A stretch of DNA of 64,000 nucleotides. Source: Patescibacteria group bacterium (lineage in GTDB: Bacteria > Patescibacteriota > Patescibacteriia > UBA10025 > JAHIVO01). Shown here piece by piece: positions 2,845 through 60,992 of the stretch. The notes under the pieces are model-generated. The model was given only the letters and a program-made list of their open reading frames with translations, made no database searches and was not told the DNA's origin. The position numbers and the translations under genes are program-made. Every line of letters begins with the position of its first letter. The first letter of the stretch is position 1. The stretch covers positions 265,295-329,294 of the forward strand of contig JBAZWB010000001.1 in assembly GCA_041660605.1 (NCBI GenBank), in the 5' to 3' direction.

Positions 2845-3196
2845 TAATAGCAGGGGTGGGATTTCCGCGTCTCCTTCGCTTTCGCTCGGGCTCCTTGTCC
2901 TGAGCAGCGCCGAATGCTCCTGATGGTCGCATTCGTCGGCGTTCGTCTGCCCCTTCGGCTCCGCTCAGGGTTGCCTCACTTCTGCTCGTTCGAATCCCAC
3001 GAGCTTAAAAATATCGTTATGCTTAATAGCAGGGGTGGGATTTCCGCGTCTCCTTCGCTTTCGCTCGGGCTCCTTGTCCTGAGCAGCGCCGAATGCTCCT
3101 GATGGTCGCATTCGTCGACGTTCGTCTGCGCGCTTCGCGCTTGCCTCACTTCTGCTCGTTCGAATCCCACGAGCTTAAAAGTATCGTTATACTTAA
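2845..3196. repeat. two tandem ~187-bp direct repeats; each is a degenerate copy of the tRNA-Met 3' half with a ~111-nt GC-rich palindromic insertion in the T-loop
   Basis: Each unit begins with aatagcaggggtgggatt, identical to the 3' terminal 18 nt of the adjacent tRNA-Met in minus orientation. Each also contains GTGGGATTCGAA (T-stem 5' half plus T-loop) about 130 nt away. Copies differ at a few positions and carry internal hairpins (cgaatgc...gcattcg, gcgcgcttcgcgc). Confidence 0.8.
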
Positions 3197-3270
3197 TAGC
3201 AGGGGTGGGATTCGAACCCACGACCTCGGGCTTATGAGTCCCACGCTCTAACCAACTGAGCTACCCTGCC
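3197..3270 (-). tRNA. tRNA-Met (anticodon CAT; elongator type or tRNA-Ile2 lysidine type)
   Basis: Minus-strand sequence is GGCAGGGTAGCTCAGTTGGTTAGAGCGTGGGACTCATAAGCCCGAGGTCGTGGGTTCGAATCCCACCCCTGCTA. The D-arm is identical to E. coli elongator tRNA-Met. The anticodon loop CTCATAA has U33 and A37. There is a G1-U72 wobble, one A31-G39 mismatch, and no encoded CCA. Confidence 0.8.
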
Positions 3271-3423
3271 GCGTCAGAATCGCACTCCGCCTTCCGTTTC
3301 CAAAATTTTCTGAAAACTGCAGGCTGCGTGCGCTTCTTCCTTTCCTCGTCCGCCCATGGGCGGACTCGGTTTTTAATTTTTTAAATTGTCTGCCTAAATC
3401 AAACTATCGCAGTCAGCAAGGAT

Positions 3424-3498
3424 TGGTTGCGGGGGCGGGAGTTGCACCCGCGATCTCCGGATTATGAGCCCGGCGAGATTCTACTTCTCTACCCCGCG
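3424..3498 (-). tRNA. initiator tRNA-fMet (anticodon CAT)
   Basis: Minus-strand sequence is CGCGGGGTAGAGAAGTAGAATCTCGCCGGGCTCATAATCCGGAGATCGCGGGTGCAACTCCCGCCCCCGCAACCA. The unpaired C1xA72, the three consecutive G-C pairs in the anticodon stem, the CAU anticodon and the encoded CCA match bacterial initiator tRNA. The ends match E. coli tRNA-fMet (CGCGGGG...CCCCGCAACCA). Confidence 0.85.
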
Positions 3499-3698
3499 TC
3501 GTCAGAATCGCAGTACGCCATCCGCTTACAAAAGATTTTGTAAGCTGCTGGCTCCCTGCGATTCTTCCTCTCCTCGCAGAAAGCTTCGCTTTCTGCTCGG
3601 TTGTAAGAAATAATTCAGGACTTACTTAGGCGGTAATTTATTATGCGTGTTGGGAATTATAAGGTATTTAATGTATTTACGCAAGCTGGCAAGTTGGG

Positions 3699-3773
3699 TG
3701 GTGCCGCCGGTCGGAGTCGAACCGACATGGGAGTAATCCCACACGATTTTGAGTCCCCGCCATTCGGCGGGGC
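3699..3773 (-). pseudogene. tRNA-like element (75 nt, CCA-encoded) with intact T-arm and 3' acceptor strand but no complementary 5' acceptor strand; chimeric with tRNA-Leu(CAA) segments
   Basis: Minus-strand sequence is GCCCCGCCGAATGGCGGGGACTCAAAATCGTGTGGGATTACTCCCATGTCGGTTCGACTCCGACCGGCGGCACCA. The T-arm GTCGG/TTCGACT/CCGAC and CGGCGGC-A-CCA are canonical. The Leu(CAA) anticodon loop GACTCAAAATCG and a degenerate copy of the Leu T-arm are present, but no GCCGCCG 5' strand could be found. Confidence 0.4.
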
Positions 3774-3793
3774 AAGCGTACATGTCAATTTGT

Positions 3794-3880
3794 TGGTGCC
3801 GAAGGTGGGAGTTGAACCCACACGGGCTTGCGCCCATGCGATTTTGAGTCGCACGCGTATGCCAGTTCCGCCACTTCGGC
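3794..3880 (-). tRNA. tRNA-Leu (anticodon CAA), type II with long variable arm
   Basis: Minus-strand sequence is GCCGAAGTGGCGGAACTGGCATACGCGTGCGACTCAAAATCGCATGGGCGCAAGCCCGTGTGGGTTCAACTCCCACCTTCGGCACCA. The 5' end matches E. coli tRNA-Leu (GCCGAAGUGGCG...). Anticodon stem is TGCGA/TCGCA, loop CTCAAAA, variable hairpin GGGCGCAAGCCC, and CCA is encoded. Confidence 0.9.
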
Positions 3881-4020
3881 ATGTTCTATAAAATTAACTG
3901 TAAAATTGATTACCTACGTAATTAAGTAAATCAAAACAGTTTTTAATATATACAATGATTCTAGGTAAAAACGCTGTTTTTGTCAATGATTATTTGCTAT
4001 AATACTATTATATATATTAT

Positions 4021-4794
4021 ATGCCAAAGGTCATTTCCATTGTAAATCAGAAAGGAGGAGTGGGCAAAACTACAACGGCCATAAATTTGGCCGCTTTCTT
4101 GGCGCATCATGGCAAGTTTGTGCTTTTAATTGATCTGGACCCCCAGGGAAACGCTTCTTCCGGCCTTGGCATTGATTATAAAACCATTGAAAAAGGCATA
4201 TACCATCCCTTAATAGCCGGCCACCCATTAAAGGATATCATCACTCCGACCAGCGTAGATGGATTAAGAGTGGCGCCGGCGACGATCGATCTGGCAGGGG
4301 CGCGGGTGGAGCTGGTGGACATGGAAAAAAGGGAGTTCCGCCTGCATGACGCGGTTTTGGAAGTGCGTAATGATTATGATTATATAATCATTGATTGTCC
4401 GCCCTCCCTGTGCCTCTTGACGGTTAACGGGCTGGTAGCCGCTGATGAATTAATGATTCCCGTACAAACCGAATATTTCGCCCTTGAAGGATTGAGCCAG
4501 CTTCTCGACACCATAAAGCTCGTACGGGAAAATTTAAAACCAGAATTGAAAATAATGGGCGCGGTCATGACCATGTATGATGATCGGAATAAATTATCGC
4601 AGGATGTTTTCCATGAATTGTATAAATACTTCCCGGATAATATTTTTCGCACCGTTGTGCCCCGCAATGTCAGGCTGGCGGAAGCCCCCAGCTTCGGCCA
4701 GAGCATCTTGCATTACGACAAGCGATCTCCGGGCGGTAAAGCTTATAAAAGATTAGCGCAGGAAGTCATTGATCTGACTGAAGCGTTGCAATAA
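4021..4794 (+). CDS. parA: chromosome partitioning ATPase ParA/Soj
   Basis: 257-aa ORF with the deviant Walker A motif KGGVGKTTTAINLAAFLA and overall ParA/Soj architecture. It sits upstream of parB. Confidence 0.9.
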   Translation: MPKVISIVNQKGGVGKTTTAINLAAFLAHHGKFVLLIDLDPQGNASSGLGIDYKTIEKGIYHPLIAGHPLKDIITPTSVDGLRVAPATIDLAGARVELVDMEKREFRLHDAVLEVRNDYDYIIIDCPPSLCLLTVNGLVAADELMIPVQTEYFALEGLSQLLDTIKLVRENLKPELKIMGAVMTMYDDRNKLSQDVFHELYKYFPDNIFRTVVPRNVRLAEAPSFGQSILHYDKRSPGGKAYKRLAQEVIDLTEALQ

Positions 4795-4811
4795 ATTTTA
4801 ATTATAAAAAT

Positions 4812-5675
4812 ATGTCAAACAGTACTTTAGGCCGGGGACTGGGATCGCTAATTCCTCACCGCAAAATTGCCGAGGAAATAAACAGCACCATCATGCCGGT
4901 CCTTGATGATCAGATCAGGGAAATCGAAGTCAGATTGCTGAAACCGAACCCGCATCAGCCGCGCGTGGACTTTGACCGGGCCAACCTGGAGGATTTGATT
5001 AATTCCATAAAAGTACACGGGATCATTTCGCCTTTGATTGTCATAAAAGGGCAAGGTGAATATCAGATTATTGCCGGAGAACGACGCTGGCGCGCCGCAA
5101 AAATTCTGGGTTTAAAAAAAGTACCGGTAGTCGCCCGCAGCGCCACGGAGCAGGAGAAGCTGGAGCTAGCGCTGGTGGAAAATGTACAGCGGCAGAATTT
5201 GAATCCCATTGAAAAAGCCTATGGCTATCAGCGCCTGATTGATGAGTTTAATCTGACTCAGGAGGAAGTGGGCAAAAAAGTCGGACAAAGCCGCGCGGCG
5301 GTCAGCAACGCCCTGAGATTGCTGACGCTAGAGCCGGAAATACAGAAAGCCCTGATAGAGGGCATAATTACTGAAGGCCACGCCAAGGTATTATTAGGCA
5401 TTAAAAACGAAATTGAACGCCTGAAGGTTTTCAAAAATATTATCAGCCATAAATTAAGCGTCCGTTCGGCTGAAGATAAGGCGCGCACTGTGACTGTCAG
5501 AAAACATATTCGGCAGTCGTCCAAAGATCCAAATATTACCGCGCTGGAGGAATCTATACGCGAAAAGCTGGGGACTAAAGTGGAAATTCAGAAAAATGGA
5601 GAACAAGGACTGGTTAAAATCCATTTTTATTCGACAGAAGAATTGCGGGAGATTATTAATAAAATTACCGGATAA
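4812..5675 (+). CDS. parB: chromosome partitioning protein ParB/Spo0J
   Basis: 287-aa ORF with ParB box motifs (GLGSLIP, IIAGERRWRAAKILGL) and an HTH region, immediately downstream of parA. Confidence 0.9.
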   Translation: MSNSTLGRGLGSLIPHRKIAEEINSTIMPVLDDQIREIEVRLLKPNPHQPRVDFDRANLEDLINSIKVHGIISPLIVIKGQGEYQIIAGERRWRAAKILGLKKVPVVARSATEQEKLELALVENVQRQNLNPIEKAYGYQRLIDEFNLTQEEVGKKVGQSRAAVSNALRLLTLEPEIQKALIEGIITEGHAKVLLGIKNEIERLKVFKNIISHKLSVRSAEDKARTVTVRKHIRQSSKDPNITALEESIREKLGTKVEIQKNGEQGLVKIHFYSTEELREIINKITG

Positions 5676-5678
5676 CCC

Positions 5679-7901
5679 ATGAATATTATCAATACTTTGA
5701 AAAGTAAATTATTTTTTCATAAGCAGGAAGATAAATGGGATGCCGGTTTGCGCTGGATACTCCTGTTTCTAGTTTTTTTACTGCCGATTTTTTTCTTCAG
5801 CCCTAATACGCATCCCTTAGAATTCGATAAGGTCCTTTTGTTCTGTATAATTATTTTTCTGATTACCGCCGTGAGTTATGGAGTATCCTTATACAAAGGC
5901 ACATATGGGTGGATACGTACGCCGTTTGATTATCTGTTTATAATTTTTTTCGGATTTTACCTTTCATCATTTATTTTTTCCAAAGATCACTACCAGAGTT
6001 TAGTGGGAGTCAGCGGTTACTATAGCACCGGGCTGATGGCCGTTTTGGCTTTAATCTTATTTATTTATCTGCTGTTCCGCCTGATAAAGAAAAAGCAGCA
6101 TATTTTTTTATTTTTATACGCTTTTATCGCTTCGGCTATTCTGGTCGTTATTTACAACCTTTTCAAGGTTTTTGGAGTTGATATTCTACCCTGGGCTGTC
6201 ACTAAAACTCCGGGCTTTGGCCTGGCTTCTAGCTCAGCGGTATCACTGGCGATTTATGCTGGTCTGATTATGCTGGTCTGTTCTGGTTTAATGCTGATAT
6301 TAAAAAAGTTCTGGCAAAAGTCATTGTTTGGGATTATCGGGCTGCTCTCGTTATTTTTACTGTTTTTAATCAACAAGCAGATCTCTTTATTTGCCGTGGC
6401 ACTGGGATTTTTCTGCCTGTTAATACTGGCGGCTTTTAATTCCAGAAAAATTTCACCATGGTGGGTCATTACCCCGACCATTCTACTGACGCTCCTAATC
6501 GTTTTTATCTTTATTGATGTTTCGTCAATTTTTTCTTTGCAGGTTAATGACAGTATTTTTCTCGACCAAAAAACCTCCGCTAATATTGCCTGGCAGACAG
6601 TCAGTCATGAAATTTTATGGGGGGTTGGCCCGCAAAATTATAATTACGCTTTCAATGCCTATCGGCCGGTTTCCTTCAACAATTCCGATTTGTGGAATCT
6701 GAAATTCATAAAAGGAGCGGATGAGTGGTGGGGGATTTTAACAACTTTCGGTTTGGGCGGTTTCCTGGCGCTACTGGCAATTTGCTTAAAATATCTGTTA
6801 AGCGGTATAAAATCTGTTAGTAAATTAAGCCACTCCCTTGAGGACTGGAGTTTGGGGATAGTTTTATTATGCGGATGGCTGGTAACTTTTATCGCCAGCT
6901 GGCTTTTGCCTTTTGATTTTATTCTCTGGCTGGCCTGGGCGTTATTCCTGGGGCTAGGTATGCGCTATTTGATTCTCCAAGACAATACGGCGCAGATAAT
7001 TAAAATCAACAAAACCAGAATTTCGAATCTGCTTTTTCATATTGGGTTTGTGGTAATATCCACCGGAGCAATCCTGGTGGCATTTTTTGGCGTTAAAATA
7101 TGGCTGGCTGATTATCATTATGTCCTGGCTTTGCGAGGCATTGACGCAAAAAATGACATGACTAAAATTCAGCAGCATCTGGATAAGGCGATCAAAAATA
7201 ATCCGTATGAAGTGCAATATTACATAACGCAGGCGCAGGGGGACGTTACTCAGGCCCAGTTGGAGTCCGTTAAGGATACCCCCAAAACAGACGTTGTGCA
7301 AAAATATACACAACAGGCCATTGATTCGCTGAAAAAAGCCAAGGAAGTGAGACCGAGATTGGCTACCTTGTATGAGCAGGAAGCGAATTTATACGACAGC
7401 ATGCGCAATCTCATTTCCAATGCGGATGAGCTGTCTATCGGTGCCTACGTAAAATTATCCGAGCTGGAGCCTAATAATCCCTTGGTATTTTTAAACCTTG
7501 GGCGCTCCCGCATGCTCTGGGGGCAGGTCTTGCAGAGATCAGACGATACGGCCGTTAAAAATGAAGGTATGGGGTTATTGCAGCAATCCTTGGTGGATTT
7601 TTCCAAAGCAAAGGCTTTAAAAGATAATTTTATCATTGCCGATCTGAATATCGGGCTGGCGCAGGAAGCGGTGGGTAATGCGGATGAAGCCTTGAAAATA
7701 TACGAAAATATAATTGTCCAGGCGCCTGACTACCCGGATGCCTACTGGTATGCCGTCTTAATTTATGAAAATAAAGAGGATAAAGATGAGGCCGTGTCTT
7801 TACTGCAGAAACTGGTAAAAATTGCGCCAAGCAACCCGGCATTCAAGCAGAAATTGCAGGATTTAACGTCCGCTGAACAGCAGTCAGACACTGCAAATTA
7901 A
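5679..7901 (+). CDS. polytopic membrane protein with O-antigen ligase (Wzy_C)-like domain and C-terminal TPR repeats
   Basis: 740-aa ORF with more than 10 TM helices. A Wzy_C-like periplasmic loop (KFIKGADEWWGILTTFGLGGF) is followed by about 270 aa of TPR-like helical repeats. Confidence 0.7.
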   Translation: MNIINTLKSKLFFHKQEDKWDAGLRWILLFLVFLLPIFFFSPNTHPLEFDKVLLFCIIIFLITAVSYGVSLYKGTYGWIRTPFDYLFIIFFGFYLSSFIFSKDHYQSLVGVSGYYSTGLMAVLALILFIYLLFRLIKKKQHIFLFLYAFIASAILVVIYNLFKVFGVDILPWAVTKTPGFGLASSSAVSLAIYAGLIMLVCSGLMLILKKFWQKSLFGIIGLLSLFLLFLINKQISLFAVALGFFCLLILAAFNSRKISPWWVITPTILLTLLIVFIFIDVSSIFSLQVNDSIFLDQKTSANIAWQTVSHEILWGVGPQNYNYAFNAYRPVSFNNSDLWNLKFIKGADEWWGILTTFGLGGFLALLAICLKYLLSGIKSVSKLSHSLEDWSLGIVLLCGWLVTFIASWLLPFDFILWLAWALFLGLGMRYLILQDNTAQIIKINKTRISNLLFHIGFVVISTGAILVAFFGVKIWLADYHYVLALRGIDAKNDMTKIQQHLDKAIKNNPYEVQYYITQAQGDVTQAQLESVKDTPKTDVVQKYTQQAIDSLKKAKEVRPRLATLYEQEANLYDSMRNLISNADELSIGAYVKLSELEPNNPLVFLNLGRSRMLWGQVLQRSDDTAVKNEGMGLLQQSLVDFSKAKALKDNFIIADLNIGLAQEAVGNADEALKIYENIIVQAPDYPDAYWYAVLIYENKEDKDEAVSLLQKLVKIAPSNPAFKQKLQDLTSAEQQSDTAN

Positions 7902-7923
7902 TTATTCTAAAGTACCATGAGCC

Positions 7924-7952: not shown

Positions 7953-8161
7953 ATTTCATTAAGTTTAATTCGTTCATTGACTATAAATTCGATACTAAAA
8001 ATAGAAACTCAATATTCTACTGCCTTAATTGGGCACCGCTTCTCACGCCGGCAGAAAGGAGGGAATTTTTAAAGACAGGAAAACCGGCCTGTCTGGGTGG
8101 TAGGTAGAATATGAGTGAGTTAACACAGGTACCCATGAACTCATGTCCATCGGAGGAAACG

Positions 8162-8797
8162 ATGACAAGAAAGCTTTGTGCTTTAATTCTTGCCGTTACG
8201 CTCCTGTTCATGGTATCCGTCGTTTGGGCAAATCCAATTCCGCCGGCGATATCTGCTGAGAGTTGGGATGGTTGGTCTAACAAAGATGTTTCACCGCCGT
8301 CAAGCGTTTTGCCTGTTTCGTCGAATGCCATGCAAGAGTTGAGTCCTATGGTGTTGACAGCGCTGCAATACGTAGCGCCGATGAACGCCGATCGACTCGT
8401 CGTCAACACAGCTAATCCGGCAGTGATTGACAATTACCTGGCGTCTTGTGCAGTTTCGTCGAATAAACTGACAGCCGCCTACCTGACCGCATCCAGCCCG
8501 CCAATATCCAATACTGAAAGTTTGGCGCGTTGCGATGATTACCTGAACATTTCACCCCAAAACCGACAACAACTTAACAGCAGTATCGAATTGGCTGAGC
8601 GTACGACGACGGCGAGCGCCAATGAACCGCGGGAGTGCGTGGCCTATCCGGCCCATATTGTCGGTTTCGAGCAGAAGAGTATTGAGCACGGGCCGCAATT
8701 TCCTGTGCTCAGTGTGTGGATCGAAGACGGACCGGTAATCCCCGTCTTTGCGAAACTCGCACCGTTCGCAGGAACTACCGGACTGATTCTAGTCTAG
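8162..8797 (+). CDS. secreted hypothetical protein (signal peptide, 4 Cys), GC-richer than its surroundings
   Basis: The track ORF is 8111..8797. The likely true start is ATG 8162, preceded by GGAGGA at 8152-8157, giving MTRKLCALILAVTLLFMVSVVWA as a signal peptide. The opposite-strand ORF 8017..8433 is judged spurious. Confidence 0.5.
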   Translation: MTRKLCALILAVTLLFMVSVVWANPIPPAISAESWDGWSNKDVSPPSSVLPVSSNAMQELSPMVLTALQYVAPMNADRLVVNTANPAVIDNYLASCAVSSNKLTAAYLTASSPPISNTESLARCDDYLNISPQNRQQLNSSIELAERTTTASANEPRECVAYPAHIVGFEQKSIEHGPQFPVLSVWIEDGPVIPVFAKLAPFAGTTGLILV

Positions 8798-8836
8798 ACC
8801 GAGCGGCTTAGCTAGTAAGAAGTCTGAAATACAAAC

Positions 8837-13611: not shown

Positions 13612-14700
13612 TTAACTGGCGAGCGTGTAATACGCGCCGCCCTGGTGCCGTATCATACCCTTCATTTCCATCATGGTGATGGCGGAATTTGCAATACTGG
13701 TTTTTAGTTTACTCCTCTTTATTAATTCGTCAATATGCAGGGGTTCGTGCGATAAAAATTGCAGTAAAATTTTTTCTTCTTCCGTAGAGCCGATAACTTT
13801 TTTATTCTCTTCATATAATTGCGCCAGCCTGAGGTCGAAGACATCCAGGATATCGCGTGCCGAAGTGACCACATGAGCGCCCATTTTTATGAGATTGTTG
13901 GGCCCGCTGGCGGTTTGGCTGGAAATATTACCGGGCACGGCGAATATTTCCCTGTTTTGATCCAGGGCAAAGCGAGCGGTGATTAATGAGCCGGAATCCT
14001 CGCCCCCCTCGATTACCAGCACGCCCTTGGCCAGTCCGGAGATAATGCGGTTTCTGGCGGGAAAATGCTGTTTTAACGGCTCCGTACCGGGTGGGTATTC
14101 AGATATCAAGGCCCCGTCATTTTTCACGATTTCTTCGCCTAAACTGCGGTTGGTGACAGGATAAATGCGGTCCAGGCCGCAACCCAGCACTGCCACGGTT
14201 TTCTGGCCGGCATCAAGGGCAGCCTGATGGGCCAGGGCGTCTATACCCAGTGCCAGTCCGGAGATTATAATCAATCCAGCCCGGCTGATCTCACCGGTTA
14301 TTTCTGGAGCAATCTGCCGGCCATAAGCAGTGGTTTTTCTGGTGCCGACGACCGCCAGGGACAGATTAAAATTTTCCGGCAGTTTACCTTTTACATATAA
14401 AAGGGCAGGTGCGGAATGGATTTCTTTCAGCAGAGCGGGATATTCCTGATGATGTATAGTAATAACGCGTATGCCTTTCTTTGTCAAATCCTCCCATTCA
14501 GCCTCAGGATTTATTTTACATCTTTCGGTTAATATTTTTTCCACGTCTTTCTGGCCGAGGCCCGCGGCTTTTAATTCAGCGCCAGAGGCCTGCCAAGCTG
14601 CTTCCATAGACGGAAAATGCGCATAAAGAAGTTTGAATTTTTGCGGGCCGAGGCTGTAGATCCTGGAAAAGGCGACCCAGAATTTGGTGTCGTTTGGCAT
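13612..14700 (-). CDS. dprA: DNA processing protein DprA (natural transformation)
   Basis: 362-aa ORF with the DprA Rossmann-like core (LAVVGTRKTTAYGRQIAPEITGEISRAGLIIISGLALGIDALAHQAAL...GCGLDRIYP). Confidence 0.9.
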   Translation of the reverse strand: MPNDTKFWVAFSRIYSLGPQKFKLLYAHFPSMEAAWQASGAELKAAGLGQKDVEKILTERCKINPEAEWEDLTKKGIRVITIHHQEYPALLKEIHSAPALLYVKGKLPENFNLSLAVVGTRKTTAYGRQIAPEITGEISRAGLIIISGLALGIDALAHQAALDAGQKTVAVLGCGLDRIYPVTNRSLGEEIVKNDGALISEYPPGTEPLKQHFPARNRIISGLAKGVLVIEGGEDSGSLITARFALDQNREIFAVPGNISSQTASGPNNLIKMGAHVVTSARDILDVFDLRLAQLYEENKKVIGSTEEEKILLQFLSHEPLHIDELIKRSKLKTSIANSAITMMEMKGMIRHQGGAYYTLAS

Positions 14701-25458: not shown

Positions 25459-25677
25459 GTCGGAATACTATAATATTATTGCTGGTATATTTGATTTGAT
25501 TTTTTCTGATTTTGTGCTATAATGTGGCTAATTCGCTTATTTTTTTTACTTTTTTTGCAAATTTTGCACTTACTAAATTTAAGCAGTCTGAGATGATTCA
25601 GGATGATAATTAATTTATTGACTATCTAGTTGTCAGAATTTGGGAAGCGCGATTTTAGCCCGCCGATTCATATTCGT

Positions 25678-25751
25678 GGGTGATTAGCTCAGCTGGTTAG
25701 AGCGCTATCCTCACACGATAGAGGTCTCAGGTTCAAATCCTGAATCACCCA
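25678..25751 (+). tRNA. tRNA-Val (anticodon CAC)
   Basis: Sequence is GGGTGATTAGCTCAGCTGGTTAGAGCGCTATCCTCACACGATAGAGGTCTCAGGTTCAAATCCTGAATCACCCA. The cloverleaf is canonical, with anticodon loop CTCACAC and no encoded CCA. Confidence 0.85.
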
Positions 25752-25847
25752 TTTATAAAAAATAGACTTTGGGGTTCGTAGCTCCCCATACCATACTCAC
25801 TTTGTTCGTAGGTACGGGGCAAGCAGTTGACTAGAGCGCCACATTGA

Positions 25848-25956
25848 TCCCTCACCTTCCTCTGCGCGTGTAGCTCAGTTGGTTAGAGCGTCACATTGAC
25901 ATTGTGAAGGTCCCAGGTTCAACTCCTGGCACGCGCATGTAGAGGAAGGTGAGGGA
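25848..25956 (+). repeat. perfect 16-bp inverted repeat bracketing tRNA-Val(GAC)
   Basis: tccctcaccttcctct (25848-25863) directly abuts the tRNA 5' end. Its exact reverse complement agaggaaggtgaggga lies at 25941-25956, 3 nt after the tRNA 3' end. This is a processing-stem-like arrangement. Confidence 0.85.
25864..25937 (+). tRNA. tRNA-Val (anticodon GAC)
   Basis: Sequence is GCGCGTGTAGCTCAGTTGGTTAGAGCGTCACATTGACATTGTGAAGGTCCCAGGTTCAACTCCTGGCACGCGCA. The cloverleaf is canonical, with anticodon loop TTGACAT. Confidence 0.9.
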
Positions 25957-26020
25957 TAAAGGTCAGAGGTTCAACTCCTCTCGGACCCACCAAGGAGCGT
26001 TGCAGATTGATAAAATTTAA

Positions 26021-26158
26021 AGCGGCTCAGTTTCCGCCAAAGGCGGATCAGCCTCTGGCTGAGGTTAGAGCGTCACATTGACACCTGCCCGCAATGCCTT
26101 GCAGCAATGCGTGGCAGGCGGGTTGTGAAGGTCCCAGGTTCAACTCCTGGCACGCGCA
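26021..26158 (+). pseudogene. disrupted tRNA-Val(GAC) copy with 30-nt D-loop insertion and 39-nt insertion between anticodon-loop positions 37/38; no proper 5' acceptor strand
   Basis: The copy matches the intact gene from GCTCAGTT through CACGCGCA, plus 35 nt of identical 3' flank. It carries the insertion tccgccaaaggcggatcagcctctggctga (26033-26062) in the D-loop. It also carries cctgcccgcaatgccttgcagcaatgcgtggcaggcggg (26084-26122) after TTGACA of the anticodon loop. The 5' end reads AAAGCG instead of GCGCGTGTA. Confidence 0.6.
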
Positions 26159-26350
26159 TGTAGAGGAAGGTGAGGGATAAAGGTCAGAGGTTCCTCCGCC
26201 ACAATAAATTAAATAAATTAAAGTAGGGCGGGGTCCCCGCCCACCTGCCTTGCGGCAGCGAGGCTGGCGCGGCGCCTTTGGCGGAAACTCCTCTCGGACC
26301 CACCAGCAATTTAAAAGTTTTTATTATAATTAATCGATTTTTAAAATAAA

Positions 26351-45879: not shown

Positions 45880-45889
45880 CCGTAATATT

Positions 45890-55556: not shown

Positions 55557-55557
55557 T

Positions 55558-57453: not shown

Positions 57454-57466
57454 TTATTTATTGGCA

Positions 57467-57495
57467 TTGACAAAATCATTGATTTGATATATGAT
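57467..57495 (+). promoter_or_regulatory. sigma70-like promoter TTGACA-N17-TATGAT
   Basis: -35 at 57467-57472 and -10 at 57490-57495. It drives the small ORF at 57580. Confidence 0.5.
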
Positions 57496-57579
57496 ACTAG
57501 GAATTTCATCTTGTAGTCGTTTTTTCGTAAACCTTTAACCAACAGAACCTTAATTCACTCTATCCACGGAGGGTAAGTA

Positions 57580-57786
57580 ATGGCACGATTCACGGCCGGG
57601 CAGGATGTACAATATCCTGCAAGCATAATTGCTGGCGAAGAAAAGCCACAGATGCGCAAAGGGAAAATTGAATTCGTCGGCGGTAACATGCTGAGTATCA
57701 TCGACGTAGAAACCGGCGTAAGCGCGCTTCGCTTTTTCGCCGTAGACGGGACTATCATTGTCCCTGTTATGAAGCCGAAAGAATAA
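57580..57786 (+). CDS. hypothetical small protein (68 aa)
   Basis: ATG is preceded by GGAGGG at a 7-nt spacing. The unit has its own promoter and terminator. No family recognized. Confidence 0.55.
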   Translation: MARFTAGQDVQYPASIIAGEEKPQMRKGKIEFVGGNMLSIIDVETGVSALRFFAVDGTIIVPVMKPKE

Positions 57787-57813
57787 GGGCTCTGAATAGG
57801 AATTTGTACATGA

Positions 57814-57848
57814 GCTGTCACTGGGTTTCCCGGAGACAGCTTTTTTTA
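57814..57848 (+). terminator. rho-independent terminator
   Basis: Stem gctgtc (57814-57819) pairs with gacagc (57835-57840); T7 run at 57841-57847. Confidence 0.65.
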
Positions 57849-57887
57849 TCCTCCTACATGCCTTTATAGTTAATTATGAAGGCTAAT

Positions 57888-57962
57888 TTGACATAATTTT
57901 TATCCGGTGATATGGTTATTCCAGCAAAACCTTCCCTAAATTTTCGGGAAGGGATTTTTTTT
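57888..57962 (+). promoter_or_regulatory. promoter (TTGACA-N17-TATGGT) immediately followed by terminator hairpin: mini transcription unit or attenuator
   Basis: -35 at 57888-57893 and -10 at 57911-57916. Stem ccttccc (57930-57936) pairs with gggaagg (57946-57952), followed by a T8 run. Confidence 0.4.
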
Positions 57963-58052
57963 ATGGGAAGATTAGGTGCTTAGCATATAGCATATGGCTT
58001 ATAGCAAATAGTTTAAGTTAAATGATAGTAAATTATTACTAATAAAACAACT

Positions 58053-58403
58053 ATGTTTAGATTTGAGACATTGGAAATTTGGAAAGAGGCGATAATTTTT
58101 GTGAATAAAATTTATCTCACTACTGAAAAAAACTTTCCGAAACATGAGTTATATGCTCTCACAAGCCAAGTGCGAAGAGCAGCGATATCTGTTTCTGCGA
58201 ATATCGCCGAAGGCTCGGCTAATGACAGTATAAGGGGTTTCAAATTATTTTTGAATTACAGCATCCGTTCTTTAGTGGAAGTAATTTCTGAGCTCTATAT
58301 TGCAAGAGATAGAGAGTATATAAATAATCAAGATTTTAACTCCCTATATTTAAATGCTGAAGTACTAGTTAAGAGGATAACTTGTTTTAAAAAAAGTTTA
58401 TAG
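58053..58403 (+). CDS. four-helix-bundle protein (23S rRNA intervening-sequence protein family)
   Basis: 116-aa ORF with N-terminal FETLEIWKEAIIFVNKIY and SANIAEGS. The family is recalled from memory as the four-helix-bundle proteins found within 23S rRNA intervening sequences. Confidence 0.8.
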   Translation: MFRFETLEIWKEAIIFVNKIYLTTEKNFPKHELYALTSQVRRAAISVSANIAEGSANDSIRGFKLFLNYSIRSLVEVISELYIARDREYINNQDFNSLYLNAEVLVKRITCFKKSL

Positions 58404-58434
58404 CCATATACTATAAGCTATTCGCTGTTGAGTT

Positions 58435-59940
58435 ATGAGAAAACTATCAAAATCAAAAATTTTCCTATACAGCAGCCTGGCTTTTATCTTTGGCGTGGCT
58501 ATTCGGTCGTTAATAAATATTCCTATGTGGCTGGCGCTGACGTTCGGGTCGGCAGGAATAATTATGCTAATTTGGCGGGTAAAAATTTTATGGAGAGTCT
58601 GCGCGATTTGTCTGCTGATGATTTCCTGCGGCATTTTCAGGTACCAGATGTCGATTCCGCATAATAATAATTCAAGCGTTCAGCATTTTAATAACCAAAA
58701 AGCCAGTTTTATTGCATTGATTACAACTGAGCCGGATACCAGGAAGGATCACGTGAAACTGGCCGTTGAAATAAAAAAAGGTTTAGATAATATTCCAGCA
58801 GCAGTGCAGGGTAAAGTGTTAATTAACGCAACATTATATCCGGAACACCATTATGGAGATTTGTTGCAGATTGATTGCCGGCTGCAGGCGCCGGAGCCGA
58901 TAAAAGACGAGGAATCAGGCAGGATTTTTAATTACGACAAATATCTAGCCCGCTATGACATTTATTCCATATGTTATCGGCCGGGCATCAAGCTTCTAGC
59001 TGCTGACCAGGGTAATATTCTTTTAGCCGCCCTTTTGTCAGTTAAAAATAAGTTTGTTCAATCTATCCAGCTATCCCTGCCAGAACCGCAGGCTTCTTTT
59101 CTCGGCGGGCTGGTCCTGGGCGCGAAGAGGGCGATTCCCGACGATTTGATGGAAAGTTTCGCTCGTACAGGCACTACGCATATCGTGGCTTTATCGGGCT
59201 ACAACATTACAATTATTGCTGTTTTAATTTCAAATCTGTGCAAGCACCTGTGGATTTCCAGAAAAAAAGCTTTTTGGGTGTCTGCGGCGGCTATCGCCTT
59301 TTTCGTTTTAATCACCGGCGCGCAGGCCTCAGTCGTCAGGGCGGGGATTATGGGCATGCTGGTTTTACTGGCTACCCAGATGGGGCGCCTGAGCCGGATC
59401 ACCAATGTGTTAATTTTGGCAGCAGTAATAATGTTACTGGTGAATCCGAAGGTCTTGGTTTTTGATGCCGGATTTCAATTGTCTTTTTTGGCGACCGTGG
59501 GGCTTGTTTATGTGTCGCCAATTGTTAAAAGATTTTTTAATTGGCTGCCGGACTTTTTCCAAATCAGGGAAAATTTGGTGGCCACCCTCTCTGCCACTTT
59601 AATGACATTGCCTTTGATAATTTTTCAGTTTGGACGCCTGTCTTTAGTGGCTCCGCTGGTGAATGTTTTAATCCTGCCGGCTATTCCTATTGCTATGGGC
59701 TTTGGTTTTGTCATGGGGTTACTGGCGCTGATCTGGCTGCCGTTGGGGCCGGTGTTCGGCTGGATAGTCTGGTCAATTTTGAGTTATATAATTTTTATAG
59801 TTAATAGTTTTGCCAAGTTAAACTTCGTGGCTTTTGAATTTGGCCAAGTCAGATGGCTCTGGCTGGCGCTAGGCTATGGGTTTTTAACATTAATATTATT
59901 CAAAGCCAGAAAATCAGAAGCCAGTATGATTAAAGTGTAA
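58435..59940 (+). CDS. comEC: ComEC/Rec2 DNA internalization channel (DUF4131 + competence domain; no beta-lactamase domain)
   Basis: 501-aa polytopic membrane protein with the competence-domain motifs (GTTHIVALSGYNITII, GFQLSFLAT). Confidence 0.8.
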   Translation: MRKLSKSKIFLYSSLAFIFGVAIRSLINIPMWLALTFGSAGIIMLIWRVKILWRVCAICLLMISCGIFRYQMSIPHNNNSSVQHFNNQKASFIALITTEPDTRKDHVKLAVEIKKGLDNIPAAVQGKVLINATLYPEHHYGDLLQIDCRLQAPEPIKDEESGRIFNYDKYLARYDIYSICYRPGIKLLAADQGNILLAALLSVKNKFVQSIQLSLPEPQASFLGGLVLGAKRAIPDDLMESFARTGTTHIVALSGYNITIIAVLISNLCKHLWISRKKAFWVSAAAIAFFVLITGAQASVVRAGIMGMLVLLATQMGRLSRITNVLILAAVIMLLVNPKVLVFDAGFQLSFLATVGLVYVSPIVKRFFNWLPDFFQIRENLVATLSATLMTLPLIIFQFGRLSLVAPLVNVLILPAIPIAMGFGFVMGLLALIWLPLGPVFGWIVWSILSYIIFIVNSFAKLNFVAFEFGQVRWLWLALGYGFLTLILFKARKSEASMIKV

Positions 59941-59948
59941 ATAATTTT

Positions 59949-60992
59949 ATGCCAAACAGATTCATTTCAAAAAAAATATTTATATGCTTATTTGGTTTGT
60001 TAACAGTTTGTTGTCTATTGTTTGCGCTGGTCTGGCAAAGCGAACAAAATAAAAATCTAAAGATAATATTTTTTGATATCGGCCAGGGAGACAGCATTTA
60101 CATCCGCACGCCCTCGCAGCAGGACATATTGATAGACGGCGGGTCGGATTCCGGAGTCCTGGCAAAACTGGGGCGGGCCATGCCGTTCTATGACCACACG
60201 ATTGACCTAATGGTATTGACGCACGCCCACGCGGATCACGTGGCCGGATTAGTTGAAGTGCTGAAACGTTATAAGGTGCGGAAGGTTTTATACAGCGGAG
60301 TGGAGGATTCAGCGCCGGAATTTCTGGAATGGGAGCGGTTGATAAATGAAAAAGGCGTTGAAATGACCATTGCCAAGGCTGGCCAGGAATTTATTTTTGA
60401 TCAAGCGGGCATGAAAGTTTTATATCCAACTGAAGATTTAAGGCAGAATAAATTTGACGACTTAAACGAGACTTCAATAGTTACACAGCTGGTTTACCAG
60501 AACACCTCGTTTTTATTCACCGGCGACGCGCCGGTAAAAGTAGAAAAGGGTTTGTTGGAATTCTATCAGCAGCTCGGGTCAGGAGTTTTAAATATCGCTG
60601 AAGCGAGCCCGCCCGCCTTGCTCACGCCTGCATCGACTTCGTCGATACGAAGTCGGGCAGGTCGCAACGCGAAGCGGGCGGGGGCTTCAGCGTACCCTTT
60701 GGAAGGGGCTCCAGCAAACCCGCTAAAGAGTGATGTTCTGAAAGTCGGGCACCATGGGAGTAAATATTCCTCTTCGCTGGAATTTCTCCAAGCTGTTGAC
60801 CCGCAGTACGCGGTGATTCAGGTGGGAAAGGATAATAAATTCGGGCATCCGCATGAGCAGGTCGTTAAAAGATTAAATGGATTGGGCTTTAATGTTTTAA
60901 GAAATGATCTTGAAGGAGACATTACCATGGAGTCCGATGGCGATAATATTCTATTGACAGATAAGAATGATAGTGTTAATATCATCAGATAA
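59949..60992 (+). CDS. MBL-fold metallo-hydrolase (ComEC C-terminal-domain-like) with a ~40-aa in-frame insertion
   Basis: 347-aa ORF with HAHADH and a downstream HHGS. The insertion VLNIAEASPPALLTPASTSSIRSRAGRNAKRAGASAYPLEGAPANPL sits between QQLGSG and KSDVLKVGHHG. Confidence 0.8.
   Translation: MPNRFISKKIFICLFGLLTVCCLLFALVWQSEQNKNLKIIFFDIGQGDSIYIRTPSQQDILIDGGSDSGVLAKLGRAMPFYDHTIDLMVLTHAHADHVAGLVEVLKRYKVRKVLYSGVEDSAPEFLEWERLINEKGVEMTIAKAGQEFIFDQAGMKVLYPTEDLRQNKFDDLNETSIVTQLVYQNTSFLFTGDAPVKVEKGLLEFYQQLGSGVLNIAEASPPALLTPASTSSIRSRAGRNAKRAGASAYPLEGAPANPLKSDVLKVGHHGSKYSSSLEFLQAVDPQYAVIQVGKDNKFGHPHEQVVKRLNGLGFNVLRNDLEGDITMESDGDNILLTDKNDSVNIIR
60596..60715 (+). repeat. GC-rich nested-palindrome insertion inside the MBL hydrolase coding sequence (in frame)
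   Basis: gcccgcccgc pairs with gcgggcgggg as outer arms; cgacttcg-tcgata-cgaagtcg forms the inner hairpin. About 65% GC within a ~45% GC gene. Confidence 0.5.

Follow-up and report, generated by a model that had tools for sequence, protein, structure and literature searches.

We asked whether the GC-rich inserts that interrupt several tRNA copies and one coding sequence at this locus belong to one family of mobile elements. The DNA analysed here (the window) is a stretch of 64,000 nt from a Patescibacteria (CPR) genome, in which ARAGORN and Rfam found five intact tRNAs. A preliminary description had listed the inserts and assigned them to a single family. Every insert that it listed is present in the sequence, and a separately built, independent Logan assembly matches the insert region at 100% identity. 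The tRNA copies are interrupted at exactly the positions claimed (the T-loop of two Met copies, and the D-loop and position 37/38 of Val). The GC-rich inserts are real; judged from sequence, they appear to represent several kinds of selfish insertion and not one family. No functional tRNA gene is broken up here: the interrupted copies are dead duplicates, and intact genes lie next to them.

The Met locus consists of two tandem 179-nt units, each containing the 3′ end of a tRNA-Met that is interrupted in its T-loop. The features of the locus are as follows.

2848-2863, minus strand: displaced tRNA-Met 3′ end AATCCCACCCCTGCTA of unit 1, identical to the 3′ end of the tRNA-Met at 3197-3270 (repeat families)
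2864-2987, minus strand: structured T-loop module, copy 1 (core 2892-2986; covariance model R1, 80.3 bits, E 3e-18)
2988-3000, minus strand: 5′ arm GTGGGATTCGAAC of unit 1, an inverted copy of the T-loop and T-stem 3′ strand that closes the module (inverted repeat)
3027-3042, minus strand: displaced tRNA-Met 3′ end of unit 2 (repeat families)
3043-3157, minus strand: structured T-loop module, copy 2 (core 3071-3156; R1, 83.7 bits, E 4e-19)
3158-3170, minus strand: 5′ arm of unit 2 (inverted repeat I3)
3197-3270, minus strand: intact tRNA-Met(CAT), whose 3′ end is duplicated in both units (ARAGORN, Rfam)
3424-3498, minus strand: intact tRNA-Met (ARAGORN, Rfam)

The 5′ arm of unit 1 forms a 13-nt perfect inverted repeat with 3205-3217. 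On alignment, the two module copies differ solely in a variable inner hairpin, which is GCGCGAAGCGCGC in copy 2 and CCCTGAGCGGAGCCGAAGGGG in copy 1. The module is predicted to adopt a three-way-junction-like fold that is closed by the halves of the T-stem and contains P1 GGGCAG/CUGCCC, P3 GAAUGC-GACCNNNGGA-GCAUUC and the variable hairpin. Of the tRNA, the Met remnants retain no more than the T-arm and the acceptor strand on the 3′ side; the 5′ two-thirds are missing. This anatomy suggests that a ~180-bp element, made of a tRNA 3′ end, a spacer and the structured module, entered the T-loop between TTCGAA and AT. The element is present twice in tandem, and a displaced tRNA-Met 3′ end terminates each copy.

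A related arrangement lies next to it at the Leu locus.

3703-3755, minus strand: remnant of a diverged tRNA-Leu(CAA) that keeps the 3′ two-thirds, anticodon loop to CCA (repeat D4)
3756-3773, minus strand: GC hairpin CCCCGCCGAATGGCGGGG at the tRNA-Leu break (hairpin listing)
3794-3880, minus strand: intact tRNA-Leu (ARAGORN, Rfam)

The remnant is 76% identical to the adjoining intact tRNA-Leu (repeat D4) and gives a weak tRNA-Sec match of 30 bits. We read it as a displaced 3′ fragment, broken at the anticodon loop with the GC hairpin at the break.

The Val locus is more complex.

25677-25752, plus strand: intact tRNA-Val(CAC) (ARAGORN, Rfam)
25771-25848, plus strand: 5′ part of an ancestral tRNA-Val(GAC), here called pseudogene X (match to the L004 orthologue GGGTTCGTAGCTC...; synteny)
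25784-25824, plus strand: 41-nt insert in the D-loop of X
25849-25955, plus strand: replacement cassette in the anticodon loop of X, composed of IR-L, tRNA-Val(GAC), TGT and IR-R (ARAGORN, Rfam; inverted repeat I1)
25849-25863, plus strand: IR-L CCCTCACCTTCCTCT (15-bp inverted repeat)
25864-25937, plus strand: intact replacement tRNA-Val(GAC) (ARAGORN, Rfam)
25941-25955, plus strand: IR-R AGAGGAAGGTGAGGG (15-bp inverted repeat)
25960-25992, plus strand: 3′ part of X with variable loop, T-arm, acceptor strand and CCA (L004 comparison)
26025-26305, plus strand: second dead Val(GAC) copy plus X 3′ part (repeat analysis, folding)
26033-26062, plus strand: D-loop insert in the dead copy, TCCGCCAAAGGCGGA plus TCAGCCTCTGGCTGA
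26084-26122, plus strand: 37/38 insert in the dead copy, a CCTGCC...GGCAGG palindrome
26194-26285, plus strand: T-loop insert in the fragment that follows the dead copy

The hairpin run that had been described at 26226-26285 is contained in this last insert. The tRNA-Val(GAC) of L004 is uninterrupted and matches both halves of X; with the 3′ part it shares 32 of 33 nt. In X the anticodon stem has lost its 3′ strand, and the second copy lacks the 5′ acceptor strand. A 17-nt perfect inverted repeat (26029-45 and 26273-89) spans the dead region. We propose that the ancestral tRNA-Val(GAC) received, in its anticodon loop, a cassette made of a whole tRNA-Val(GAC) with 15-bp inverted repeats. The D-, T- and anticodon loops of the dead copy would have gathered small GC hairpins of the types CCGCC-AAA-GGCGG and CCTGCC...GGCAGG.

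Comparison of orthologous loci indicates that each listed insert is a true insertion. Synteny at both tRNA loci is kept in nine related loci of six related genomes, and at the Val locus the order GT2-tRNA-lepB-hisS is conserved. The intergenic space there is 893 nt in the window versus 212-384 nt in relatives; at the Met/Leu locus it is 1568 nt versus 700-1498 nt. The Met remnant is absent from L006, L007, L009 and L010. L011 carries a homologous module (48 bits), and L008 has a different insert at this same junction. Nesting recurs as well: L008 has a tRNA-Leu with flanking inverted repeats inside the D-loop of the same isoacceptor, and L011 has such nested same-isoacceptor tRNAs for Leu and, in the anticodon loop, for Met. 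The flanking repeat at Val (CCCTCACC...) is unlike the CCTGCC-type repeats of the relatives in sequence. In L006, L015 and L043, a hairpin-riddled dead tRNA copy lies upstream of a GIY-YIG ORF that abuts the live tRNA. The GIY-YIG proteins of relatives are single-domain (79-92 aa), have no DNA-binding domain, and find their nearest structures in UPF0213 and SLX1. At the tRNA remnants of relatives, CCGCC-N3-4-GGCGG hairpins number 31 against ~1.2 expected, and CTGCC..GGCAG 71 against 24.8. The proposed cctgcc/ggcagg motif is enriched at tRNA remnants across relatives, as are the CCGCC-N3-GGCGG hairpins. Within the window the proposed motifs stay at chance.

The T-loop module proved to be widespread. 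A 19-base core pattern occurs at 63 loci in GTDB genomes, versus ~9 expected by chance, with conserved flanks. The covariance model found ~50 full-length copies (47-87 bits) in ~30 assemblies, mostly CPR, some of them outside the set picked by the pattern. In the alignment 99.4% of cells are paired, with compensatory changes in 14 of 16 pairs; none of 500 shuffles reached the observed values, and slid controls paired at 29-39%. Rfam has no match to the module, which is apparently an undescribed family of structured DNA or RNA. With few exceptions an intact tRNA of any isoacceptor is followed by a terminator, the module and the displaced 3′ end of the same tRNA. This duplicate 3′ end is typically split in its T-loop by the module, and closing stems measure 6-13 bp across the family. 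In other CPR genomes the module also sits in frame within two GT4 glycosyltransferase genes, at different positions. No recurrent gene neighbour was found in ~60 loci.

We consider it probable that several kinds of selfish insertion have entered single-stranded loops of structured genes, chiefly tRNA genes, in this Patescibacteria lineage. A common logic would be that an element enters the loop of a tRNA gene and supplies a replacement for the part that it destroys, and that the displaced piece of the old gene persists alongside as a pseudogene. No GIY-YIG, transposase or integrase gene was found in the window by tblastn or by Pfam searches of ~30 ORFs, so we infer the mechanism. The elements may move as DNA, and the loops that they enter would be those of folded single-stranded DNA. 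The single-domain GIY-YIG nucleases are candidates for the driving enzyme, since in relatives their genes sit between dead and live tRNA copies; the window has none.

The module could instead be a cellular non-coding RNA gene, for example a small RNA matured via its tRNA-like closing helix, duplicated beside tRNA genes and not mobile. The unpaired nucleotides are strongly conserved, which is compatible with a functional RNA gene as well, and the module's loop and junction nucleotides are conserved, with strong covariation, in very divergent genomes. The module is always on the same strand as the tRNA, with a terminator in between, and sometimes has a -10-like box upstream; the closing helix is sometimes prolonged into an acceptor-like stem. 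However, single genomes hold several copies beside many different tRNAs, and presence varies among the orthologous loci of relatives. The two in-frame positions in glycosyltransferase genes are unrelated, other palindromes are nested in the module (L059), and in the window the module was tandemly duplicated with its inner hairpin swapped. We therefore regard a stationary RNA gene as unlikely.

Direct repeats of a tRNA 3′ end that start in the T- or anticodon loop are the classical attL/attR mark of tRNA-targeting integrases. The remnants could then be attachment-site scars of integrase-type islands or prophages that were later almost wholly deleted, and in L024 the direct repeat does run 27 nt beyond the tRNA end. 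Yet no integrase lies in the window or beside the module at ~60 loci, and viral contigs gave no matches. The same conserved module of 85-170 nt is the sole content between the tRNA 3′-end repeats in ~30 genomes, which independent decay would not yield. D-loop inserts and nested whole tRNAs would also be left unexplained, and this origin is quite improbable.

The insert in the coding sequence is of another kind.

60596-60692, plus strand: nested hairpin of 97 nt (33 codons), in frame, in a variable loop of a ComEC-type MBL protein (homologue alignment, folding)

Its host is the MBL/ComEC-type CDS at 59949-60992, and the claim of a frame-preserving GC-rich insertion was borne out. The hairpin is absent from all ten aligned homologues, the closest matches included. 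It is the strongest local structure of the window (RNA MFE -73.8, z -6; DNA fold -38.5 kcal/mol, z -6.7). It shares short identities of 12 nt (GTCGCAACGCGA) with L027 and 10 nt (GTCGGGCAGG) with L059, which could be within chance range. The gene may have taken up the 97-nt nested hairpin in frame, in the style of Rickettsia palindromic elements. Alternatively, this hairpin and the small GC hairpins formed in place by template switching or slippage at quasi-palindromes, with no mobile element. The MBL insert is nested and near-perfectly palindromic, the Val-locus hairpins are mutual inverted copies, and the search, which within the source genome reached as far as the window, turned up no further copy of the MBL hairpin. 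Against formation in place, the D-loop of the dead tRNA-Gln copy in L043 carries the hairpin CCGCCAAAGGCGG as in the window; tRNA and genome differ, yet the hairpin sequence and the kind of site are the same. A 20-nt palindrome (CCTGCCTRCCGGYAGGCAGG) is present in at least six genomes, and the MBL homologues have nothing resembling a seed palindrome at the insert site. Such an origin seems improbable to us, and we keep to insertion of several kinds of element.

The preliminary description had favoured one miniature mobile family, REP-, MITE- or Correia-like, with cctgcc/ggcagg, cttgcctcac and gcgc-ttcg as shared motifs. All inserts are indeed GC-rich (0.59-0.69), several are hairpins (MBL the strongest), and CCTGCC...GGCAGG palindromes recur at the tRNA remnants of relatives. 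But the motifs are at chance level in the window (CTTGCYTCAC, 5 observed versus 6.2 expected; GCGCTTCGCGC, 21 versus 20.5). In pairwise local alignments against shuffles, similarity was found only within loci (Met1=Met2, ValD~ValT, Val37~ValT); Met, Val and MBL inserts showed no cross-locus similarity above shuffles. The Met-module covariance model matches nothing in the window besides the two Met copies. In single-sequence folding, the hairpin character of the Met inserts is not significant (z -0.9 to -2.3). GTAG or CGTC tags, a 26-bp terminal inverted repeat and a short target duplication are all absent. The single-family claim is largely refuted, and we give it very little credence. What stands of the description is the inserts and their positions, as structured GC-rich insertions into loops and a CDS, and a likeness to mobile elements in the sense of a process that related sequences elsewhere mark as recurrent and lineage-wide; what is not borne out is the shared motifs, the cross-locus similarity, the hairpin character at Met and one shared REP/MITE/Correia-like element. 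Small introns (archaeal-type bulge-helix-bulge or group I-like) that are spliced to give functional tRNAs and mRNA are scarcely credible: one insert does lie exactly at the canonical intron site 37/38, but removal of the inserts rebuilds no complete tRNA from the Met remnants (whose 5′ two-thirds are missing), X (whose anticodon stem has no 3′ strand) or the second Val copy, intact genes with the same anticodon stand alongside, the inserts (30-124 nt) have no Rfam intron match, and the MBL insert leaves the reading frame open, as if translated.

Several known systems resemble parts of this picture. The multi-intron, split and permuted tRNA genes of archaea (PMC3218864) share the interruptions of the D- and T-loops and at position 37/38, and GC-rich helices that flank tRNA pieces. 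The genome here is bacterial, however, its pieces assemble into no complete tRNA, intact genes stand alongside, and no bulge-helix-bulge geometry was identified.

Phage T4 SegB is a free-standing GIY-YIG homing endonuclease in a tRNA cluster (PMC2988022, PMC13096335). SegB and the homing-endonuclease insertions of fungal mitochondria resemble our loci in a GIY-YIG gene among tRNA genes, in the associated segmental duplication of tRNA DNA and in the displaced partial gene copies that remain. In contrast, our genomes are cellular CPR genomes and not phage or organelle, and the CPR nucleases are single-domain proteins of 79-92 aa whose homing would be putative; the window has no such gene.

Islands and prophages with tRNA-targeting tyrosine integrases likewise enter the T-loop or anticodon loop, bring a replacement 3′ part and leave the displaced 3′ end as a direct repeat. 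The elements here have no integrase, measure ~180-300 bp or are a single tRNA cassette, nest whole tRNAs between inverted repeats, and have a covarying structured module in place of attP arms.

REP and CGTC-tagged repeats are short GC-rich hairpins recognised as folded single strands; the genes of the single-domain GIY-YIG ssDNA nuclease Ssn are small and flanked by their own hairpins, and the repeats occasionally lie in CDSs (PMC3733652; PMC11893778). Short GC-rich hairpins, small single-domain GIY-YIG genes (in relatives) and occasional CDS insertion are likenesses. The hairpins here (CCGCC-N3-GGCGG, CCTGCC..GGCAGG) lack GTAG and CGTC tags, however, and the GIY-YIG proteins, found in relatives and not in the window, are nearest to UPF0213/SLX1 structures. 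Ssn has no described link to tRNA genes ('tRNA' is unmentioned in PMC11893778).

Rickettsia palindromic elements (RPEs; Ogata et al. 2000/2002) are described in PMC3733652 as structured palindromes of ~100-150 nt with no coding capacity of their own, and by that description our inserts are like them. They differ in that the host lineage here is CPR and that the module is bound to tRNA T-loops together with a duplicated tRNA 3′ end.

The window belongs to a bacterial metagenome-assembled genome of the Patescibacteria (CPR) and carries the housekeeping genes ParAB, Lgt, topoisomerase I, DprA, Mfd, HisRS, LepB, FtsAZ and a split ComEC. Its proteins also occur on the 960,449-bp ENA contig ERZ27249449 k141_729649 and, identical, on a Logan assembly; an assembly artefact was rejected because the independent assembly is identical. 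The nearest relatives in protein databases are only 55-69% identical and are Kerfeldbacteria-like. ARAGORN and Rfam found five tRNAs of normal length: Leu(CAA), two Met, Val(CAC) and Val(GAC). Direct sequence reading and repeat analysis revealed partial tRNA copies adjoining intact tRNAs, and the ARAGORN and Rfam calls fell on the intact neighbours only. The preliminary description had placed GC-rich inserts in tRNA loops, and the partial copies are indeed broken where it said, in the T-loop (Met, twice), in the D-loop and at position 37/38 (Val).

Downstream of tRNA-Met (3197-3270, minus strand) lie two tandem 179-nt units, each containing GTGGGATTCGAAC, an insert of 115-124 nt and AATCCCACCCCTGCTA. 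The last of these is the tRNA-Met 3' end and occurs three times in the window. Outside a swapped variable inner hairpin, the two inserts (2864-2987 and 3043-3157) are 99% identical. By single-sequence folding they showed no significant structure (z -0.9 to -2.3). The other features of the Met/Leu locus are as follows.

Features of the Met/Leu locus
3703-3755, minus strand: 3' fragment of a diverged tRNA-Leu; the break is in the anticodon loop and is marked by hairpin CCCCGCCGAATGGCGGGG
3276-3348 and 3504-3576, minus strand: element of ~80 nt directly upstream of both tRNA-Met genes
3348-3365, read on the plus strand: hairpin GTCCGCCCATGGGCGGAC followed by TCGGTTTTT, terminator-like, on the opposite strand to the tRNAs
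~2480-2800, minus strand: small ORF of ~100 codons with a hydrophobic N-terminus, between the Met remnants and a conserved 189-aa ORF

The tRNA-Leu fragment is a third case of an interrupted tRNA, absent from the preliminary list. Diversity-generating (DGR) template/variable repeats were rejected, since the Met copies differ by the swapped hairpin without A-specific changes.

The element upstream of the tRNA-Met genes has CGAGGAAAGGAG, next a long imperfect hairpin (30-bp arms at 3504-3565) and after it GGAAACGGAAGGCGGAGTGCGATTC. Its two copies in the window are 80% identical. In three relatives' Met/Leu loci (L006, L007 and L008) it can be recognised in front of the tRNA-Met genes, although the hairpin differs in sequence, and it may represent a conserved leader. 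At the place equivalent to 3348-3365, L006 has the GTCCGCCCATGGGCGGAC hairpin at least once (4591) and a second time with one mismatch, and in other relatives the conserved flanks CCGAG and CGAGG enclose a different hairpin. The ORF at ~2480-2800 has no counterpart there in L006, L007 and L010, where tRNA-Met almost directly precedes the conserved ORF.

A central hairpin, GAATGCGACC-N3-4-GGAGCATTC, is common to the window's Met insert and to L011, another relative's Met/Leu locus. We used it as a search pattern over one genome per GTDB species and obtained 63 loci, compared with ~9 expected by chance. Conservation of the flanks reached far past the pattern and defined a T-loop module with the layout: T-stem 5' strand, ATTCGAAC-GGGCAGAAGCGAG, variable hairpin, GAGCGTCGAT, core, AGCGCTGCCC-AGGACAAGGAG, variable hairpin, GACGCGG, and AAATCCC with the T-stem 3' strand and the acceptor strand. 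A covariance model built from 31 sequences scored the window copies at 83.7 and 80.3 bits and the L011 copy at 48 bits. Over the fetched loci it recovered ~50 full-length copies, several of which did not match the search pattern.

In the module alignment, which was fitted to the model, 99.4% of cells are paired and compensatory changes occur in 14 of 16 pairs (57 cells). None of 500 shuffles reached these values, and slid controls paired at 29-39%. The P1 variants GGCAG/CTGCC, GGTGG/CCACC, GGTAG/CTACC and the window's GAGCAG/CTGCTC were seen in the raw MAFFT alignment. In Rfam 15 no family matched the module, nor was there a meaningful sub-threshold hit on it; the only families to reach the gathering threshold were tRNA and, in one locus (L069), RNase P. 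The module is a well-supported structured motif absent from Rfam. tmRNA, SRP RNA, RNase P RNA and known ribozymes were rejected as its identity because there was no Rfam signal and the module is multi-copy. The viral contigs that we scanned for the module core gave 0 hits, and in the library searched, by keyword and by sequence string, no paper described the module, its arrangement or tRNAs nested in this way in CPR.

At most module loci a same-strand tRNA gene (Glu, Pro, Lys, Val, Ser, Leu, Arg or Gln) precedes the module by 100-200 nt. Each locus inspected (~15) begins with an intact tRNA, followed by a hairpin and T-run resembling a terminator. After a short spacer comes the module, and behind it the 3' end of the same tRNA appears a second time, beginning in the T-loop. 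The flanking duplication is this 3' end, 16-24 nt long and up to 55 nt in L024, where the direct repeat extends 27 nt past the tRNA end. The closing helix of the module is 6-13 bp and made of target-derived T-stem sequence. It reaches into the acceptor strand in L048 (13 bp), L032 (11 bp) and L018 (10 bp), and no natural 5' segment of a tRNA could provide this extension. A minority of copies precede a tRNA by ~60 nt. In two loci (L027 and L064) the module sits in frame within glycosyltransferase (GT4) genes, at different positions, and each insertion is missing from other homologues. Several assemblies carry multiple copies; in the window the tandem pair is the only one. One module (L059) contains an inserted CCTGCC...GGCAGG palindrome. 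ORF clustering revealed no recurrent partner gene around ~60 module loci. As a set, these traits are better matched by a non-autonomous mobile element; a cellular RNA gene is the less likely reading.

L069 (Parcubacteria ADurb.Bin326) has three module copies in 8 kb (1368-1448, 7490-7574 and 7771-7869), which flank tRNA-Val(TAC) on both sides and adjoin tRNA-Gln; the CCGCCTTTGGCGG hairpin lies inside its RNase P RNA gene match (1608-1989). Only the central hairpin, GAATGCGACC-NNN-GGAGCATTC, is present in L012, L022, L029, L037, L038, L050 and L060 (Halieaceae), in L014 (Bdellovibrionales) and in L017 and L032 (Coriobacteriia). These hairpins from outside the CPR score 27-29 bits over model positions 45-69. 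They adjoin a tRNA wherever the fetched stretch has one, mostly downstream after the terminator, and in L017 and L032 the hairpin again precedes a copy of the tRNA 3' end. They probably form a separate family of modules that is related to this one.

At the Val locus a whole tRNA has been nested inside another. The gene order GT2, tRNA-Val genes, lepB, hisS, HIT ... giant pilin-like protein is common to the window and three relatives (L003-L005), and the intergenic space is 893 nt in the window compared with 212-384 nt in the relatives. L004 has an uninterrupted tRNA-Val(GAC), GGGTTCGTAGCTCAGTTGGTTAGAGCGCCACATTGACATTGTGGAGGTCAGAGGTTCAACTCCTCTCGAACCCACCA. Both halves of a gene of this type are kept almost unchanged in the window, as a pseudogene (X).

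Halves of pseudogene X
25771-25848, plus strand: 5' half, with a 41-nt insert in the D-loop
25960-25992, plus strand: 3' half, 32 of 33 nt identical to the L004 tRNA-Val(GAC)

The cassette that splits X at the anticodon loop consists of CCCTCACCTTCCTCT, an intact tRNA-Val(GAC) at 25864-25937, TGT and AGAGGAAGGTGAGGG. X is dead because the 3' strand of its anticodon stem is lost (positions ~37-43 are missing). The nested gene, which differs from X in sequence, is the functional tRNA-Val(GAC). The segment from the D-stem of this new Val to the end of the X 3' half is repeated at 26025-26305 (copy 2), with three hairpin inserts: in the D-loop, at 37/38 and, in the following fragment, 92 nt in the T-loop.

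Similar nesting was found in relatives at the Met/Leu locus, where the conserved order is DsbA, Lgt, small ORF, [Leu, Met, Met], ParA, ParB and TPR protein. L007, L009 and L010 are clean. In L008 a complete tRNA-Leu, flanked by CCCGCCTGCC and GGCAGGCGGG, takes the place of the D-loop of an older tRNA-Leu that is orthologous to the window's. The same locus has a Leu 3' fragment with a T-loop interruption and a tRNA-Met remnant interrupted in the T-loop at the same place as in the window. L011, which carries the homologue of the window Met insert, has a Leu nested in a Leu and also a Met that sits within a degenerate Met, in its anticodon loop, again with flanking repeats of the CCTGCC/GGCAGG type. 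Together with the window, L008 and L011 therefore indicate a recurrent architecture of the lineage, in which a same-anticodon replacement is nested in the old gene between inverted repeats.

Small GC-rich hairpins are enriched in the 625 kb of fetched loci. We counted 31 CCGCC-N3-4-GGCGG hairpins (~1.2 expected) and 71 CTGCC...GGCAG pairs (24.8 in dinucleotide shuffles). The 20-nt palindrome CCTGCCTRCCGGYAGGCAGG is present in at least six assemblies, typically within displaced tRNA 3' ends. In copy 2 of the window the D-loop hairpin is TCCGCCAAAGGCGGA, and its inverted copy lies in the T-loop insert. Direct counterparts of this hairpin occur in L043 (Kerfeldbacteria), whose dead tRNA-Gln copy has CCGCCAAAGGCGG in the D-loop and GCGCCAAAGGCGC and TCCGCCTCCGGCGGA in the T-loop. 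A dead tRNA-Lys copy in L015 has CCCGTCGAATGACGGG at 37/38 and the inverted copy of it in the T-loop. L006 has a 41-nt copy of the tRNA-Leu 5' half with a perfect 20-nt palindrome, CCTGCCTGCCGGCAGGCAGG, inserted at 31/32, followed by a 79-aa GIY-YIG ORF and then an intact tRNA-Leu with a gap of 0.

In L006, L015 and L043 the hairpin-riddled dead copy lies immediately upstream of a single-domain GIY-YIG ORF (PF01541), and this ORF adjoins the 5' end of the live tRNA at 0-34 nt. Single-domain GIY-YIG ORFs beside a tRNA and hairpin structures were also found in L008 (between the Met genes), L020 and L068. The nearest PDB structures to the relatives' proteins are UPF0213 and SLX1. In the window, tblastn with these proteins gave no match, and Pfam scans of ~30 ORFs detected no transposase (Y1_Tnp included), no integrase and no nuclease gene.

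The remaining insert is in a protein-coding gene. Two competence genes of the window are listed here.

Competence genes of the window
13612-14700: DprA, CDS
58435-59940 and 59949-60992: ComEC split in two, a channel gene and an MBL-nuclease gene

A GC-rich nested hairpin at 60596-60692 lies in the second ComEC part, an MBL-fold, ComEC C-terminal protein. As the preliminary description had claimed, the insertion keeps the frame: it adds 33 codons of open frame and is missing from ten aligned homologues, the closest hits included (284-312 aa, compared with 347 aa here). The insertion is thus genuine, and the variable loop in which it sits is presumably at the protein surface. It is also the strongest local structure in the window (RNA -73.8 kcal/mol, z -6.0; DNA -38.5, z -6.7). 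It falls outside the module family by the covariance model, and neither the window nor the metagenome matches listed contained it a second time; for an exact 18-mer of it, no match among those listed exceeded 22 nt, and these were unrelated GC-rich contigs. Peptide-based scans for the MBL, Met and Val inserts gave no further copy among the 599 candidate stretches listed for each of genome_contigs and metagenome_contigs, a set in which the source locus itself did not appear either. The hairpin shares GTCGCAACGCGA with the flank of L027 and GTCGGGCAGG with the palindrome of L059, likenesses short enough for chance. By analogy it may behave like a Rickettsia palindromic element (RPE), and it is the least explained of the inserts. 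At ORF 8111-8797, orthologues are too divergent to be compared for a further in-frame insertion.

DprA and the split ComEC belong to the machinery for single-stranded DNA uptake, which may be relevant if the insertions spread via transformation. Just upstream of the split comEC genes, a 116-aa ORF at ~58053-58403 (L001 8105-8455) matches PF05635, the 23S rRNA intervening-sequence protein family, beside a domain-less 68-aa ORF.

The preliminary description had united the inserts that it listed in one family marked by shared motifs. Local alignments of insert pairs against shuffles were significant only within a locus: between the two Met inserts, between the D-loop and T-loop inserts of Val (a 17-nt perfect inverted repeat) and between the 37/38 and T-loop inserts of Val. 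Among Met, Val and MBL inserts, blastn-short and Smith-Waterman with shuffled controls, run insert against insert and against the window, detected no significant similarity between loci. The motifs occur in the window at chance frequency, and within it the idea of one family finds no support. One of them, cctgcc/ggcagg, is at chance level in the window as well; it is real at the level of the lineage, as follows from the hairpin enrichment and the dead-copy counterparts in relatives. A covariance-model scan had been proposed as a check. The model of the Met module yielded a family in other assemblies, and in the window and nine related loci it matched nothing beyond the two window copies and the one in L011. 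The general idea of GC-rich structured insertions in exposed loops of tRNA genes, sometimes in frame in proteins, is supported and extended by the comparative data, and the earlier observation was largely correct.

The reading that we consider most likely is that this lineage has elements which insert into tRNA-gene loops and compensate for the damage done. At the Met locus the T-loop module elements would bring the missing tRNA 3' part, and at the Val locus a whole replacement tRNA would be brought between inverted repeats. The displaced remnants would then gather small GC hairpins at their remaining loops. The target may be recognised or attacked as folded single-stranded DNA, as suggested by the consistent choice of D-, anticodon- and T-loops and by the nesting of hairpins in hairpins (MBL, L059). 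The candidate drivers are single-domain GIY-YIG nucleases. Such a driver is plausible by analogy, because Ssn cuts hairpin repeats in single-stranded DNA and SegB sits in a tRNA cluster.

A wider reading, which we offer tentatively and regard as somewhat doubtful, is a new class of selfish element, common in Patescibacteria, that homes into the universally conserved T-loop and other loops of tRNA genes. It would carry a replacement tRNA or 3' end and a conserved, covarying module of ~85-170 nt required for propagation; autonomous copies would encode the single-domain GIY-YIG nuclease, and small GC hairpins as well as in-frame insertions in proteins would be products of this machinery too. Possible roles for the module are a recognition site in folded single strands, a guide or a ribozyme. 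If this is true, elements overwrite tRNA genes in the reduced CPR genomes again and again, each time destroying the resident copy and supplying one of their own. Three things would then be accounted for: the nested and fragmentary tRNA genes that mislead annotation, fast turnover of tRNA sequences between close relatives, and peptide insertions in otherwise conserved proteins. The covariance model is a concrete handle for surveying the phenomenon, and the recurring order of dead tRNA, GIY-YIG gene and live tRNA points to a testable candidate enzyme, possibly a structure-specific single-strand nuclease like the recently described Ssn.

The inserts were also compared with known systems, and the intron reading is not supported. 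Excision of archaeal BHB tRNA introns gives a complete cloverleaf, whereas removal of the inserts rebuilds no complete tRNA, against the intron-like reading proposed earlier: the Met remnants are only a T-arm and 3' acceptor strand, and copy 2 has no 5' acceptor strand. Group I introns occur in Patescibacteria tRNA (PMC13011429). Their core is ~200 nt or more and detectable as Rfam Intron_gpI, whereas the window inserts are 30-124 nt and gave no Rfam intron hit, even at E<=5-10.

The REP, MITE and Correia classes, also proposed earlier, lack their hallmarks here. REP/RAYT elements are 20-40-bp palindromes with a terminal GTAG and an associated Y1 (RAYT/IS200-like) transposase gene. Direct reading found no GTAG-tagged hairpin, the hairpin types being CCGCC..GGCGG or CCTGCC..GGCAGG, and there is no such transposase among the ~30 window ORFs. 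MITE/Correia (CREE) elements have terminal inverted repeats of 15-30 bp and a short fixed duplication (TA for Correia), whereas the module has T-stem-derived closing stems of 6-13 bp and a tRNA 3'-end duplication. Integrase-type islands have the 3' part of the tRNA repeated directly at their distal end, as seen in the window and ~15 loci. They carry an integrase inside the inserted DNA, whereas here the insert is 179 bp and the window has no integrase.

Ssn-related CGTC repeats have a CGTC tag, a stem of 8-9 bp starting with AT, a 4-5-nt loop and a short tail, a combination absent here. In the module, the CGTC-like positions form a covarying base pair (CG, AU) instead of a fixed tag, and the small hairpins have no tag. 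Ssn GIY-YIG proteins cut hairpin repeats specifically in single-stranded DNA and are flanked by their own repeats (PMC11893778). The flanking gene of that system is a single-domain GIY-YIG (cd10448) gene; here PF01541 ORFs occur in relatives and none in the window. In L008, the 80-aa GIY-YIG ORF between the two tRNA-Met genes (~4070-4309, minus strand) has related hairpins on both sides, CCAACCTCCGCTTCCTTCGGAAGCTTCGGTTGG and CCAACCTTCGTTTCCCTTGGAAGTTTTGGCTGG, a layout that recalls the repeat-gene-repeat layout of ssn genes. The phage T4 GIY-YIG homing endonuclease SegB is encoded within a cluster of tRNA genes, whose preferential inheritance and segmental amplification it promotes (PMC2988022, PMC13096335). 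Seg-like genes adjoin their target, and the enzyme cleaves endonuclease-free alleles with co-conversion; for the relatives' GIY-YIG ORFs the observation is adjacency to a live tRNA, with a disabled copy upstream. RPE-like elements insert in frame without disrupting the ORF, as do the MBL hairpin and the module in the GT4 genes (L027, L064). RPEs are dispersed in many copies per genome; other assemblies have the module several times each, and the window has its tandem pair. Both the T-loop module and the nested replacement tRNAs appear to be variants, so far undescribed, of selfish DNA of known kinds: RPE-/REP-like palindromic elements, target-restoring tRNA insertions and free-standing homing-endonuclease loci.
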